Assembly: GCA_963759775.1 (NCBI GenBank)
Contig: CAVXAH010000001.1
Location: 400,682-464,681, forward strand
Source of the DNA: an uncultured bacterium
Lineage (GTDB): Bacteria; Patescibacteriota; Minisyncoccia; Phycocordibacterales; Phycocordibacteraceae
DNA: 64,000 bases
Direction of reading: 5' to 3'
Shown here piece by piece: positions 27,207-62,407 of this stretch. The position numbers were made by a program, and so were the translations under genes. Under the pieces are notes generated by a model that saw nothing but the letters and a program-made list of their open reading frames with translations, was not told where the DNA came from and made no database searches. Within the stretch, counting starts at the first letter, position 1. The number at the start of each line of letters is the position of its first letter.

Positions 27207-27278
27207 TATACCCAGCACTAAAGTTGCGAGTCTCATCACGCCGCACTGTCATTGCGGGATTGTTTAGTGCTGGGTATA
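27207..27278 (+). repeat. 16-bp perfect inverted repeat enclosing 40 nt
   Basis: TATACCCAGCACTAAA (27207-27222) and TTTAGTGCTGGGTATA (27263-27278). Inner hairpin CCGCA-N7-TGCGG. Confidence 0.6.
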
Positions 27279-31247: not shown

Positions 31248-32168
31248 TCACTCTACAATCTGATTTGGGTCTGAAAGGACAATTTCAGCGCGTCCTTCGT
31301 AGGAAACGATCTTTCCGGTGAGCGTTACTTCTTTGCCGGAGTATTGGGAAAGTGAACCAAATTGCTTTACATCGTCTGCGAAAATGACGGCAGAGAAGGG
31401 ACAGGTTTTGTAGTTCGTGCAGTAGTCAAAAAAGACCGTGCCGCTTTTGGAAGTGTAGGCGCGAAGGACCCTTCCGCGCACGGAGGCGTATTCGCCGATG
31501 TGTTTCGGGGTTTCAGTAAAATCGTACACGCCACCTGAAACACTCGCGGCGGCTCCTGCCGCCGCGTTTCCTTTATAGGCTTCAAGAAGCCGTTTCAAAA
31601 TATTCTCGTATGCCTGTCGAAGCGCTGGGTCGGTGCCGATCTGGAGAATTTCGTCGTTAATGGTCGTCGCGGACTTGGTCCAGTTGTAGCTTCCAAATGC
31701 ATAGGCCTGTTCGGTCACAAGAAGCTTCAAGTGCATGATGCCATTTCCGCTTGCGTGGCGTTCCGTGACTATAGGAATTCCTGCAGAGCGCAATTTCTCG
31801 GTGATAGGCGAGCCGTAGCTATTTGAGCTCTGCTCGCTGTCCATAATTCCTTTCACCACGACGCCGCGCTTATGCGCGGCGACAAGAGCATCCGCAACGT
31901 TGCTCAAAGTGAAGGTGTAAATCGCAAAATAAATATGGTCCTCGGCTTCGTTAATGAGCGCGATGAGCTCTTGGTCGTTTTGTTTTGCATCAAGGCTATA
32001 AATAACGCGCGTGGTGCCCGCCTTGGGGGCATCAACCGTCTGAACGGGGATGCTTACTGCGGCGCCGGCTACCGGCGCCGCTTCTCTTGCCCCGGTCGTG
32101 TATCCGACACCTCCTGCGGCTATCGCAAGTACGAGCGCGACTACCGCGCGCATAAGTTTCAATTTCAT
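31248..32168 (-). CDS. membrane-anchored/secreted phospholipase-D-family nuclease with C-terminal OB-fold-like domain
   Basis: N-terminal helix MKLKLMRAVVALVLAIAAGGVG. HKD motif GIMHLKLLVTEQAYAFGSYNWTKSATTINDE. C-terminus ...GEYASVRGRVLRAYTSKSGTVFFDYC...GKEVTLTGKIVSYEGRAEIVL. Confidence 0.8.
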   Translation of the reverse strand: MKLKLMRAVVALVLAIAAGGVGYTTGAREAAPVAGAAVSIPVQTVDAPKAGTTRVIYSLDAKQNDQELIALINEAEDHIYFAIYTFTLSNVADALVAAHKRGVVVKGIMDSEQSSNSYGSPITEKLRSAGIPIVTERHASGNGIMHLKLLVTEQAYAFGSYNWTKSATTINDEILQIGTDPALRQAYENILKRLLEAYKGNAAAGAAASVSGGVYDFTETPKHIGEYASVRGRVLRAYTSKSGTVFFDYCTNYKTCPFSAVIFADDVKQFGSLSQYSGKEVTLTGKIVSYEGRAEIVLSDPNQIVE

Positions 32169-32297
32169 CCCGTTAGAGGTAGGAAATCGTCAGACGATTT
32201 CCGTACAATTATGAACGAACGTATTAAATTTTGACCATCTCATTCAAGTAATGGTAGCACCGACTGATCTGCGGTTTTCACCTCTAACGGGATTCAT
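32164..32297 (-). mobile_element. MITE-like TIR element, family 1, copy 1 (123 bp) with flanking ATGAA direct repeats, sitting on the start codon of the PLD nuclease gene
   Basis: Minus strand reads TATGAT-GTGCCC-ATGAAT | CCCGTTAGAGGT ... GGAAATCG-TCTGA-CGATTTCC-T-ACCTCTAACGGG | ATGAAA (gene start). Plus-strand TIRs at 32169-32180 and 32280-32291. Confidence 0.6.
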
Positions 32298-32323
32298 GGG
32301 CACATCATAGCGTATCCAAATGG

Positions 32324-32770: not shown

Positions 32771-32920
32771 AGAACCCTGCTCAGAAGCAGGGACCAGGTT
32801 CTTTGCTGGACAAGGATGCGGCCTCCGCCGCTCATAGTTAGATGTTGCGTCCATTCAAACCCTCACAAAGCTTCGGGTCGTCTGGACGCCTCCAGTAGCG
32901 TCCGGCTTCCATTTAAGTAA

Positions 32921-44516: not shown

Positions 44517-44626
44517 TCCCGCTACTGGTTTCGGACAGAGCGCCCCGAAGTCTGCTTCGGGGACGAATGGCCGAGATGAAAATATGTGCGGCGGAGGCCG
44601 CAGCATTATCCAGCAAAGAACCTGGT

Positions 44627-44672
44627 CCTCGTGGCAAGTTTCGTTCGCACTCCCTCAGTGCTTGCCACGAGG
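44627..44672 (+). promoter_or_regulatory. 12-bp perfect inverted repeat in the groES leader (operator or RNA structure; not a canonical CIRCE)
   Basis: CCTCGTGGCAAG (44627-38) and CTTGCCACGAGG (44661-72). The 22-nt loop contains GCACT-N5-AGTGC. Confidence 0.5.
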
Positions 44673-51703: not shown

Positions 51704-51736
51704 TTATTTTTTGTGGGAGTATACTAGATTCACGGT

Positions 51737-51863
51737 ATGAATCCCGTTAGAGGTAAACTACAGGCGAGTTAATGATATTCTTAATGAGATGATAAGGTCG
51801 AATTTATTACTTTCGTTAATAATCGTACGGAAATCTCAGATTTCCTACCTCTAACGGGATGAA
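51737..51863 (+). mobile_element. MITE-like TIR element, family 1, copy 2 (116 bp) with flanking ATGAA direct repeats, sitting on the pilB start codon
   Basis: TAGATT-CACGGT-ATGAAT | CCCGTTAGAGGT (51743-54) ... GGAAATC-TCA-GATTTCC (51829-45) T ACCTCTAACGGG (51847-58) | ATGAAC (pilB). Confidence 0.6.
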
Positions 51864-53676
51864 CTTTCTCACCACACTGGTTGACACCAACCTTCTTTCT
51901 GCGAAGGATCGCCTTGAGGTAGAAGCACGTCTTGAAAAGGGCACACCACTGAAAGAGGCGCTTCTTGAGCGAGGTGTCGTGCTTGCGGATGCGCTCACAA
52001 AAGCAGGAGACGCATACGGAATCCCATCACGCGTACTTTCCGACCCACCTGCCGACCAGGACGTCTTCAGATATATTCCCCTTGAGTCTGCAAAACATTA
52101 CGGATTCGTACCGCTTGCAGAGGTGAACGGGGCGCTTGAAGTGGGCATCATTGACCCCGACAACATAGAGGCGATGGACGCACTCCATTTCATTAGCGGC
52201 AAACTCGGGCTTCCGTACAAAATATTTCTGATCACAAAAGAGGACTTTGATCGCGTTATAGAGGCTTATCAAAACCTTTCGGGCGAAGTCGGGAAAGCCC
52301 TTTCCGAATTTGAAACAGCCGCCGCCGCGCCTGTGCCGAAAACAGAACGAACCGAGAAATCTATGCGCGCGCTCCCCGAAGAGGAGATGCTTGATCTTGC
52401 GGGTCGCTCGGACGCGCTTCAAGAAGATACGATGACGAATCTGGAAGGACGTTCGGAAACACTTAAAGAAGACGCGCCAGTCACCAAGATTGTCTCTACG
52501 ATTCTCCGGTATGCTATTGAAGGTCAGGCTTCGGACGTACATATAGAGCCGTCTCCTACAAAAACGAGAGTGCGTTTTCGTATGGATGGAGAGCTTCATA
52601 CCTCGCTTGAGCTGCCAGCTAAGGTGCACGAAGCAGTCGTTGCGCGCATCAAAATTGTCTCCAAATTGCGACTTGATGAGAAACGAAAACCGCAAGACGG
52701 TCGGTTTTCTGCGACCGTTGAAAAACGTCGCATAGACTTTCGCGTTTCCACGTTTCCAACCGACTTCGGGGAAAAAGTGGTGATGCGTATTCTTGACCAG
52801 TCGCAGACAACGGCGACCCTTGAGTCGGTGGGACTTACGAATGAAAACCTTTCTACGGTCCGCGATCTTCTTAAAGTGCCATACGGCATCGTGCTTATTT
52901 CGGGTCCGACGGGCTCCGGCAAGTCAACGACACTTTTTGCCATGCTCTCCGAGCTCGACCGCGAAACATTAAATGTCGTGTCGCTTGAAGACCCTATTGA
53001 GTATCAAATTCCCGGTGTTTCTCAGAGCCAGGTAAGACCAGAAATCGGTTATACCTTTGCGTCGGGCCTCCGTTCAATTCTGCGCCAAGACCCAGACGTC
53101 ATCATGGTGGGTGAAATTCGTGATAAAGAAACAGCCGCACTTGCGGTGCAGGCGGCGCTGACCGGTCACTTGGTTTTCTCAACCATCCACACCAACACCG
53201 CTGCAGGTGCTATTTCGCGCCTTGTTGATATGGGTGTTGACCCCTACCTTATCGCACCGACCCTGGTTGCCGTCATGGGTCAACGTCTCGTGCGCAAGCT
53301 TTGTGAAGGGGCGGGGAAACCGGTTCCGATGAAAGATAGTATCAAGGGTCTTCTTGAAAAAGAATTTGCGGACTTGCCGGAACAGTACCGCAAGAAACTT
53401 CCTCCCTTTAAACAATTCTACCGAGCCGCACCAACCGAGGACTGTCCGAATGGACTTCGTGGCCGGCTGGGCGTATTTGAAATACTCAAAGTCACCGACA
53501 CGCTTGAAAGAGCGATTCTGGAAAGCCCCGTTGAGGAAAAGATTTACCAAGCGGCACGGAAGGAAGGAATGTTTACTATGCGTGAAGATGCCATCATTCG
53601 CGCACTTGCCGGTGAGATTCCTTTTGAAGAAGTAAATACACTCGGGGGAGACCTTTTCCCCGAAGAGCGCACTTGA
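51859..53676 (+). CDS. pilB: type IV pilus assembly ATPase PilB (GspE family)
   Basis: Walker A GPTGSGKSTT; ...LRQDPDVIMVGEIRD...; TGHLVFSTIHTN; N-terminal MshEN-like domain. Confidence 0.95.
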   Translation: MNFLTTLVDTNLLSAKDRLEVEARLEKGTPLKEALLERGVVLADALTKAGDAYGIPSRVLSDPPADQDVFRYIPLESAKHYGFVPLAEVNGALEVGIIDPDNIEAMDALHFISGKLGLPYKIFLITKEDFDRVIEAYQNLSGEVGKALSEFETAAAAPVPKTERTEKSMRALPEEEMLDLAGRSDALQEDTMTNLEGRSETLKEDAPVTKIVSTILRYAIEGQASDVHIEPSPTKTRVRFRMDGELHTSLELPAKVHEAVVARIKIVSKLRLDEKRKPQDGRFSATVEKRRIDFRVSTFPTDFGEKVVMRILDQSQTTATLESVGLTNENLSTVRDLLKVPYGIVLISGPTGSGKSTTLFAMLSELDRETLNVVSLEDPIEYQIPGVSQSQVRPEIGYTFASGLRSILRQDPDVIMVGEIRDKETAALAVQAALTGHLVFSTIHTNTAAGAISRLVDMGVDPYLIAPTLVAVMGQRLVRKLCEGAGKPVPMKDSIKGLLEKEFADLPEQYRKKLPPFKQFYRAAPTEDCPNGLRGRLGVFEILKVTDTLERAILESPVEEKIYQAARKEGMFTMREDAIIRALAGEIPFEEVNTLGGDLFPEERT

Positions 53677-60128: not shown

Positions 60129-60236
60129 CCCCTTACCACTTTTGGGGGTGTAGGGATACAAATCCGTTATTAATCGCGAGGTAACCTCGTTATTTTCCTG
60201 CAAAAAAATCGCTTACCCCCCAAAAGTGGTAAGGGG
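60129..60236. repeat. 108-bp unit bounded by a 20-bp perfect inverted repeat, directly after the pilus operon
   Basis: CCCCTTACCACTTTTGGGGG (60129-48) and CCCCCAAAAGTGGTAAGGGG (60217-36). Inner terminator-like hairpin CGAGG-TAA-CCTCG + TTATTTT. TAT on both flanks. Confidence 0.6.
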
Positions 60237-60246
60237 TATACTGTGC

Positions 60247-60384
60247 GGTATGCCACGTGGGACAACATGGCATCATGTCCCTGCTCCCAGCGCGACTAAA
60301 AAATAATCGTTATACAATCATTTACATGTGGGAAACGATTGAAACGTGTGACATGAGGAGCAATGCCATGTTGTACCCCAGGGT

Positions 60385-60387
<3 letters not shown>
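60247..60387 (+). mobile_element. 129-bp imperfect-TIR element (family 2) flanked by GGTATG direct repeats, sitting on the ligA start codon
   Basis: TATACT (60237-42)-7 nt-ATG(60250) | CCACGTGGGACAACATGGCAT ... ATGCCATGTTGTACCCCAG | GGTATG (ligA ATG 60385). Internal TACAAT at 60313-60318. Confidence 0.5.

Positions 60388-62407
<2,020 letters not shown>

Follow-up and report, generated by a model that had tools for sequence, protein, structure and literature searches.

A probable MITE-like mobile element at the start codon of pilB in a patescibacterial genome

Introduction

The Correia elements of Neisseria (CREE), the RUP elements of pneumococci, and the ERIC/IRU elements of enterobacteria are sequences of ~100-150 bp that lack a transposase, end in terminal inverted repeats, and produce a target-site duplication, and they occur as many dispersed copies that are co-transcribed with their neighbors and form long RNA hairpins able to affect expression. 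Here, we describe a family with the same traits, represented by two imperfect palindromes of ~120 nt in a 64,000-nucleotide stretch of DNA (hereafter the window: positions 400,682 to 464,681 of contig CAVXAH010000001.1, assembly GCA_963759775.1) from an uncultured member of the Patescibacteriota. Copy A (51743-51858, plus strand) precedes the gene pilB, and copy B (32291-32169, minus strand) precedes the gene of a PLD-family protein. On the evidence set out below, copy A is probably one copy of a non-autonomous mobile family, akin to MITEs (miniature inverted-repeat transposable elements) and widespread in Patescibacteria, which inserted into a start codon and gave the gene a new leader together with a short coupling open reading frame (ORF).

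From a comparative perspective, this family nonetheless departs from the Correia, RUP, and ERIC elements. Rfam scans detected no sequence relationship with any described family, the duplication measures 3-5 bp (TGRR) instead of being TA, about 75% of the copies rebuild start codons, a frame-specific ORF ends 4 nt before the gene, and the hosts are Patescibacteria with leaderless-type promoters. A second parallel is offered by the Rickettsia palindromic elements (RPEs), palindromic mobile elements that are tolerated in gene-critical sequence as translation copes with them, except that RPEs interrupt coding regions in frame and are incorporated into the protein, when the present element sits at the start codon and, if translated, forms a separate upstream ORF. 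Selfish insertions that persist by built-in expression rescue are also known in the self-splicing IStrons and in the bypass elements (T4 gene 60, the byps of yeast mitochondria); here, by contrast, there is no ribozyme (~116 nt, no Rfam match) and matching take-off and landing codons are not needed, the rescue that we propose being reinitiation. In this regard, the layout UAA-CGGG-AUG recalls termination-reinitiation coupling, in which the upstream stop lies a few nucleotides from the AUG, no Shine-Dalgarno (SD) sequence is required, and ribosomes open structure (PMC6728339). What differs from the known coupling systems is that the upstream ORF is no gene, is supplied by a mobile element, has its stop inside an inverted repeat, and encodes an unconserved peptide. 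A literature search returned no description of the element, of its arm sequence, or of MITEs in bacteria of the candidate phyla radiation, and a Halobacterium paper that it brought up offered no precedent. What is new is that the element nests in start codons, rebuilds them, and supplies in its arm the stop of a putative coupling ORF.

Insertion into the Start Codon of pilB

The arms of copy A, CCCGTTAGAGGTA (51743-51755) and TACCTCTAACGGG (51846-51858), are perfectly complementary, and with the flanking bases the inverted repeat extends to 15 nt (51741-51755 / 51846-51860), so that the A and U of the pilB AUG (51859-51861) are themselves base-paired. The resulting closing helix measures 13-15 bp in both window copies and ends on the AUG of pilB or of the PLD-family gene. 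With ≤2 mismatches allowed, the window has four occurrences of the 13-mer arm, where 0.61 would be expected and none of 100 shuffles reached four, and no copies beyond A and B were found in the window even at ≤3 mismatches per arm. The two copies as sense-strand RNA have predicted folding energies of -44.4 and -48.8 kcal/mol (z = -6.1 and -5.5, with z = -4.4 for the antisense strands), and both place a hairpin directly beside the 3' arm (51829-51835 / 51839-51845 in A, 32202-32194 / 32190-32182 in B). A preliminary description of this DNA had proposed this very geometry, a helix closing on the AUG with a conserved hairpin next to it, and the arms and folds bear it out.

How the helix came to lie at the AUG is told by orthologues. 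Three pilB genes, 75-78% identical to that of the window and set in the same gene order, have no element: their empty sites read ...gggTATACTaaacgtattgc-ATGAACCTT (L119), ...gggTATACTgatacatgcgacg-ATGAACTTT (L120), and ATGAAT, 3 nt past the preceding stop (L122), when the filled site of the window reads gggagTATACTagattcacggt-ATGAA-T[element]A-TGAACTTT. Likewise, two PLD orthologues without the element (L123 and L124, 73-77% identical) show TATACT-N6-ATGAAA and TATACT-N6-ATGAAT where the window has TATGAT-N6-ATGAA-T[element]A-TGAAATTG, and in one metagenome-assembled genome (MAG), GCA_035525885.1, the element is absent at both the pilB and the PLD loci. The PilB and PLD empty sites have the general form ...TATACT-N6-13-ATGAA..., and TGAA is single at each of them. 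Look-ups of the exact PilB and PLD proteins of the window gave either an identical arrangement or no match. Together, the element-free orthologues and the duplicated flanks identify the upstream ATGAA as the ancestral start codon, and they show that the predicted working start is made of the final base of the element (A, or G to give GUG) and the duplicated TG. The helix thus lies at the AUG as the outcome of an insertion into the start codon with duplication of TGAA, and not by a regulatory design common to two genes.

Along the plus strand, the promoter of pilB holds the -10-like hexamer TATACT (51720-51725), 11 nt 5' of the ancestral ATG, and gggTATACT also precedes the ATG in L119 and L120. 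Empty-site comparison then delimits the relic start ATGAA (51737-51741) and, within it, the 5' copy of the TGAA duplication (51738-51741). The element begins with the 5' terminal inverted repeat, T+CCCGTTAGAGGTA (51742-51755), and continues with a variable AT-rich interior (51756-51828, from alignment) which holds the motif GGTCGAA (51796-51802) and an internal ATG, a subterminal hairpin GGAAATC-TCA-GATTTCC predicted by folding to stack on the 3' arm (51829-51845), and the 3' terminal inverted repeat TACCTCTAACGGG+A (51846-51859), which supplies as its final base the A of the rebuilt start codon of pilB. The 3' copy of the duplication forms bases 2-5 of pilB (51860-51863). In translation, the ancestral ATG opens a relic short ORF, MNPVRGKLQAS followed by a stop (51737-51772), and the internal ATG at 51789 opens the putative coupling ORF (51789-51854), 21 codons (MIRSNLLLSLIIVRKSQISYL) ending at a UAA in the 3' arm (51852-51854), 4 nt ahead of the pilB AUG; the latter assignment also draws on the family statistic given below. 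The gene with the insertion (51859-53676, plus strand), identified by its Pfam domains and its orthologues, belongs to a pilM-pilN-pilO-small ORF-pilB-response regulator-pilT cluster.

Copy B is organized in the same way on the minus strand (32168-32292: 5' arm 32292-32279, hairpin 32202-32182, 3' arm 32181-32168) and adjoins the ATG (32168) of a gene for a PLDc_2-domain protein (31248-32168, minus strand), with the 3' TGAA duplication at 32167-32164. Upstream (32293-32309), a -10-like TATGAT (32309-32304) is followed by a 6-nt spacer and the ancestral ATGAA (32297-32293), which opens a relic ORF, MNPVRGENRRSVGATIT and a stop (32297-32244, from translation). The database copy of this PLD protein (P0121, 301 aa) is called 5 residues short of the element-abutting ATG (window 32166-32152).

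A Probable Family of Mobile Elements at Gene Starts

To describe the family, one genome per GTDB species was scanned with the pattern CCCGTTAGAGG-N80-110-CCTCTAACGGG, which returned at least 118 stretches, and these together with the window make up the 122 copies analyzed here. A metagenome scan with the arm variant CCCGTTAGAAG...CTTCTAACGGG (AAG arm) provided an independent second set of at least 120 stretches, which brings the known places in Patescibacteria MAGs and metagenomes to more than 240. The search patterns demanded exact 11-nt arms, and the conservation of the arm is thus partly ascertainment; the copies are related by descent and not phylogenetically independent, and gene starts and promoters were read from the sequence only.

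Among the matches listed, nearly all labeled hosts are Patescibacteria, mainly Paceibacteria/Parcubacteria, and the host MAGs comprise Kaiser-, Lloyd-, Azam-, Yanofsky-, Zambryski-, Nomura-, Taylor-, Sung-, Campbell-, and Wildermuthbacteria, Paceibacterota, and Microgenomatus. Besides, six arm matches (L008, L118, L061, L025, L114, and L088) come from contigs labeled Elusimicrobia, Omnitrophica, Planctomycetota, or Gammaproteobacteria; they are mostly away from start codons, some have GC-rich interiors, several are atypical, and mis-binning of contigs, membership in other subfamilies, or chance palindromes could account for them.

The terminal inverted repeats of the family, (T/C)CCCGTTAGAGG, span about 12-15 nt, and the elements mostly measure 102-132 nt, with variants of 27-274 nt, the ORFs inside being of at most 40 codons with non-conserved peptides. 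Arm variants are matched in both arms in every pair (AGG in 127 pairs, AAG in 12, AAA in 3, AGA in 2, and ATA in 1). Copies are dispersed and multiple within genomes, with two in the 64-kb window, four loci in MAG CAZXOE01 (L017, L034, L041, and L069), and three each in MHLS01 and MFLP01. These are short sequences without a transposase gene, bounded by terminal inverted repeats and a target-site duplication, with empty sites and dispersed copies, as is typical of MITEs, a parental insertion sequence with the same repeats being the one trait not found among the loci and viral contigs searched. Tandem or nested copies also occur (L015 1165-1570, L059 3575-3810, L075 5979-6102, L077 2823-2999, L102 1560-1755) and share a duplicated site (e.g., ...CGGG-ATGAAT-CCCG...); evidently, a rebuilt start codon can be hit again by the element.

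The association with start codons extends across the family. The 3' arm is directly followed by ATG or GTG in 99/122 copies of the genome set and 79/120 of the metagenome set, among the matches listed, and a second ATG usually lies 6 nt 5' of the 5' arm, giving the layout A-TGNN-(T/C)CCCG...CGGG(A/G)-TGNN. Identical 4-bp flanks (TGAA, which is the commonest, TGGA, TGAG, and TGGG) surround 67 of these 99 and 53 of these 79 start-codon copies, and duplications of 3 bp (TGG, TGA) and 5 bp (TGAAA, TGGAA, TGCAA) are also present. Of the 99 copies, 84 have T/A as their outermost repeat pair and 14 have C/G; with C/G (14/99 and 22/79 in the two sets), the downstream start is GTG when the upstream relic is still ATG. 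Copies away from start codons are flanked by other duplicated 4-mers (TTGA, TCAA, CAAG, CTTA, CATA, CCAG, TAAA), among which a TTGA subfamily with C/G terminal pairs occupies -35 boxes (L075 5996-6102, L063, L108, L112, L025, L053). In L075, for instance, the sequence reads GTTGACA-17 nt-TATACT-7 nt-ATG, so that the duplication rebuilds the -35 box and the copy stands upstream of the promoter. The flanking repeats are therefore target-site duplications of a cut-and-paste type element and no part of a conserved leader.

Several other types of element were considered and set aside. Guide pairing in the manner of IS200/IS605 does not apply, as no correspondence exists between the flanking 4-mer and the sequence 5' of the hairpin foot (GTAC, CTAC, ATAC...), and the duplications are genuine. 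An IS200/IS605-type PATE or a REPIN does not fit a subterminal hairpin found at one end only, true inverted repeats, and variable-length duplications. Finally, despite a likeness to integron attC sites (GTTAGAG vs GTTRRRY), copies are singly dispersed, with duplications, at start codons.

With regard to the choice of target, positions +4/+5 are purine-purine in 93% and 89% of the occupied starts of the two sets, against 48% of 212 element-free leaderless-type starts at the same loci. Sequence preference alone would, however, predict many intergenic copies, and the excess at start codons and -35 boxes suggests either active targeting of promoter or start regions or, in genomes where nearly all intergenic DNA is promoter, that an insertion survives only if it restores the signal that it breaks.

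Downstream Genes and Predicted Structure of the Leader RNA

Both window copies precede genes plausibly tied to DNA uptake, and the preliminary description had for this reason considered a leader shared by such genes. Its gene assignments stand for pilB (T2SSE and MshEN domains) and for the PLD family (PLDc_2), when the OB-fold tail that it had given to the latter protein found no support, as Pfam returned nothing for residues 195-306. The shared leader itself did not outlive the wider survey, since copies of the family precede unrelated genes. Indeed, 88 downstream proteins of at least 60 residues match 107 Pfam families with a maximum of three proteins per family, and they include SHMT, GyrA, IF-3, NusB, MurG, class I tRNA synthetases, FtsW, solute-binding proteins, and glycosyltransferases; rpmJ (L36), as judged by sequence, lies downstream of three more copies. 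The presence of the element at two putative DNA-uptake genes is a coincidence and gives no evidence for a DNA-uptake regulon.

This bears on a first alternative, in which the element would be a dedicated cis-regulatory RNA, either riboswitch or protein-binding leader, that co-regulates DNA-uptake genes like pilB and the PLD nuclease. Beyond the two window genes, it can invoke the stable RNA folds and a second pilB (L062) which also has a copy. Yet T2SSE occurs just twice among the 88 proteins, a gene distribution that contradicts co-regulation, close orthologues of both window genes do without the element, and some copies lie in -35 boxes, outside any transcript. The interior speaks against it as well: it is not conserved, with a median identity of ~57% (20 copies with a full-length upstream ORF compared), and over 84 sense copies RNAalifold finds support for nothing but the closing helix (14 pairs). 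In Rfam scans at gathering thresholds, tRNA was the sole family returned, and no RNA family passed threshold for the element, the best sub-threshold match being Ysr100 at 18.9 bits versus a gathering score of 47; Ysr100 and miRNA matches at permissive E-values merely reflect the long hairpin. A riboswitch or protein-binding leader, which the preliminary description had put forward, is thus not supported, and we hold a dedicated regulatory RNA to be highly improbable. More fortunate was its remark that a mobile element and a leader are not exclusive, which is the right frame for what follows.

Two pairs flanking the closing helix covary over the 84 copies (UA 76 / CG 7, and CG 47 / UA 35), the first of which is the pair formed by the element's terminal base. 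Outside the arms, the alignment is too heterogeneous for a covariance model, and hairpin covariation was counted directly. Two architectures emerged from this count. Class 1, with 44/99 copies and both copies of the window among them, has a perfect hairpin of 6-10 bp, (U)ACGG-stem-loop-stem-CCU, stacked on the 3' arm; 25 different stem sequences form it, and it appeared in 3/99 shuffled controls and 2/99 at the mirror position. In class 2 (43/99 copies), the closing helix is extended by 7 bp past a 4-nt bulge (ACCU, UCCU, AUCU) on the 3' strand, 33 copies pairing at 7/7 and 10 copies at 6/7 through 10 different pair sets; by eye and uncounted, some class 2 copies are also able to form an alternative local hairpin. 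In either class, ~20 bp are stacked above the AUG.

Correia elements are processed by RNase III. The long helix of the present mobile element could likewise be a substrate of RNase III or of another endonuclease, whose cleavage within the helix or at its base would take off the structured leader and regenerate a short-leader or leaderless mRNA, the ORF being secondary. The Correia precedent aside, both classes would present ~20 stacked bp, a length compatible with RNase III (a 13-14-bp helix plus a 7-bp hairpin in class 1; 13 bp, a 4-nt bulge, and 7 bp in class 2), translation must still be explained for copies that, like copy B, have no ORF, and the arm is invariant in all retrieved copies from many lineages, even if an exact-arm pattern shows spread and not conservation. 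On the other hand, cleavage inside the helix would not alone give a 5' AUG, and the strand- and frame-specific lack of stop codons described below is left unexplained. We consider this alternative to be unlikely.

As a side observation, many interiors share a motif, GGTCGAA(T)TTAT, that lies ~45-60 nt ahead of the 3' arm and falls in varying reading frames of the short ORF, which points to a signal at the nucleic-acid level. In antisense, it reads TCGACC, and with TATCAT it was flagged as a promoter-like site.

A Probably Leaderless Context of the Host Genes

Many starts in the window have TATACT, TACAAT, or TATAAT 6-7 nt before the ATG, which, along with the sites in L119, L120, L123, and L124, suggests that leaderless mRNAs would be common in this Paceibacteria-like organism. 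The preliminary description had noted an apparent lack of SD-based initiation, and the counts agree, an SD-like core being present for 18% of 71 long ORFs versus 17% of random positions. Upstream of the relic ATG (81 copies), -10-like hexamers number 16, 7, 4, and 8 at spacers of 6, 7, 8, and 9 nt (35/81), when other spacers mostly have 1-3 each. On the basis of this spacing, the host genes would have little or no leader, with the relic AUG at or near the mRNA 5' end. The element would then begin at about +6 of the predicted transcript, and going by these promoter positions it almost certainly lies inside the mRNA leader.

An internal promoter producing a leaderless transcript at the rebuilt AUG was also considered and rejected, as the fixed upstream sequence ACCTCTAACGGG has no -10-like hexamer. 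By eye and uncounted, a few copies have a -10-like hexamer before the internal ATG.

A Short Reading Frame That May Couple the Element to the Gene

In every copy, the 3' arm holds a UAA (CUC UAA CGGG AUG) whose distance to the AUG of the gene is 4 nt. Reading back from this UAA, 45/99 copies have 30 or more stop-free codons, versus 15 and 7 copies for the other two sense frames (median open lengths of 27, 11, and 10 codons, respectively). An ATG-started ORF of at least 16 codons (16-40) ending at the arm UAA is found in 58/99 copies when 12.4 are expected from interior shuffles (P ~3e-27), and in the antisense control, which has the same arm and UAA, such an ORF is found in 1/99. The pattern is replicated in the AAG-arm metagenome set, with 36/79 sense versus 6/79 antisense (P = 6e-8). 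The ORFs begin either at the relic ATG (22 cases of 37-40 codons, MNPVRG...SYL and a stop) or at an internal ATG between element positions +21 and +59 (~36 cases), and where the relic ATG is in frame, 20/35 copies are open end to end versus 5.05 expected (P = 5.5e-9). The encoded peptides are very diverse. Moreover, the interior is oriented 87:3 relative to the gene while the arms are symmetric, a bias that selection on the reading frame would produce. An in-frame N-terminal extension, as in RPEs, was rejected as an explanation, being seen in 1/81 copies only (L051).

These observations can be confronted with the alternative of a purely selfish or neutral MITE with no RNA-level adaptation, in which the frame would have remained open from a parental insertion sequence whose transposase ORF began close to one end and stopped in the opposite inverted repeat, and the location at start codons would result from target preference (TGRR) and purifying selection in very compact genomes. 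Such a view accommodates the clear purine-purine preference at +4/+5, the unrelated palindromes of the window which also lie in -10 boxes or start codons and rebuild them (see the last section), and the 41% of copies that have no ORF. It fares less well with interiors that are ~57% identical and yet keep one frame open far beyond the shuffle, other-frame, and antisense controls in two sets, with an internal ATG whose position varies from +21 to +59 and misfits a fixed relic, and with the 87:3 orientation bias, which needs selection or oriented insertion. We regard a purely selfish or neutral element as quite unlikely.

Termination-reinitiation is established in bacteria and in leaderless-rich archaea (PMC6728339), and a coupling of this kind is the likely role of the short ORF, judging from its position and frame. 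The succession of events could be as follows. A MITE-type element transposes into bases 2-5 of a gene, duplicates TGAA, and rebuilds the start codon, as the empty sites show; it would then be transcribed as a new structured 5' leader of ~120 nt whose helix sequesters the AUG. Ribosomes might begin with the relic AUG at the 5' end or with one in the AT-rich interior, as the ORF statistics and the known coupling systems (PMC6728339) lead one to suppose, translate through the hairpin and the 3' arm, thereby melting the helix, stop at the arm UAA, and reinitiate 4 nt further on, so that gene expression would be restored without an SD sequence. Where the ORF is missing, as in copy B, expression may be lower or rely on breathing of the helix, or a nuclease may process the copy. 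In copy B, no ATG-started ORF ends at the arm UAA, and a hairpin stem of 9 bp (vs 7 in copy A) shifts the frame so that only 11 codons are open. As copy A has the ORF and copy B has lost it, pilB and the PLD gene need not be affected alike.

Taken one step further, the family could be specialized for the starts of leaderless genes: it would integrate at +2 to +5, regenerate the start, and bring a translation module made of an AT-rich landing region, an AUG, a hairpin-melting ORF, and a UAA inside the inverted repeat, reinitiation then re-expressing the gene. On this stronger proposal our judgment is evenly divided.

Several points weigh against the interpretation of copy A as a mobile element with a coupling ORF, or against parts of it. 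No transposase-bearing partner was found, whether as arm pairs 300-4000 bp apart in ~0.9 Mb of loci or in viral contigs. The occupancy of start codons may reflect targeting or the survival of only harmless insertions, and the matched changes in the arms fit a repeat recognized by a transposase as well as an RNA helix. The kinship among copies inflates the P-values, though the interiors are highly diverged. Transcription would start at the relic AUG on the basis of the -10 spacing only. Finally, the copies without an ORF, copy B included, imply that coupling cannot be obligatory.

Implications for Compact Genomes

If the stronger proposal of a family specialized for leaderless starts is true, selfish DNA would have a hitherto undescribed means of persisting where genomes leave almost no non-coding space, and the element could also constitute a tunable translational gate on many housekeeping genes. 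With regard to mobile elements, the interpretation of copy A given above would show that survival is possible in genomes of 0.6-1 Mb that are ~90% coding by occupying and repairing a start codon and apparently also its translation. With regard to translation in Patescibacteria, the data point to leaderless promoters, to no use of SD sequences, and to reinitiation as a route to internal starts. On a practical note, gene callers can misplace starts at element loci, where the relic ATG creates spurious small ORFs, and insertion polymorphisms could be markers for uncultured lineages.

Other Palindromic Inserts and Repeats in the Window

The window contains further palindromes, unrelated to copies A and B, that sit in expression signals. 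Two of them lie back to back before the ORF 60385-60897. The first (60129-60236, arms CCCCTTACCACTTTTGGGGG) is inside a TATACT -10 box, with flanks TAT|...|TATACT and a duplication of TAT, and the second (60250-60386, arms CCACGTGGGACAACATGGCAT) is at the start codon of the ORF, with flanks GGTATG|...|GGTATGAAAG and GGTATG repeated. Removing both in silico leaves agcTATACTgtgcggTATGAAAG, a leaderless-type promoter and start. Elsewhere, a 72-nt palindrome with perfect arms (27207-27278, TATACCCAGCACTAAA ... TTTAGTGCTGGGTATA), with TATA repeated and then TATACT, may be a third insert inside a -10 box. Three unrelated inserts with the same habit favor the survival of signal-rebuilding insertions as at least part of the answer to why gene starts are occupied.

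Finally, 11.7 kb separate the two arms (32791-32839 / 44580-44628) of an inverted repeat of 49 nt that is 90% complementary. By eye, these arms cover the 5' ends of two opposed ORFs beginning MSGGGRILVQQRTWS and MCGGGRSIIQQRTWS, and the two ORFs are probably paralogues.

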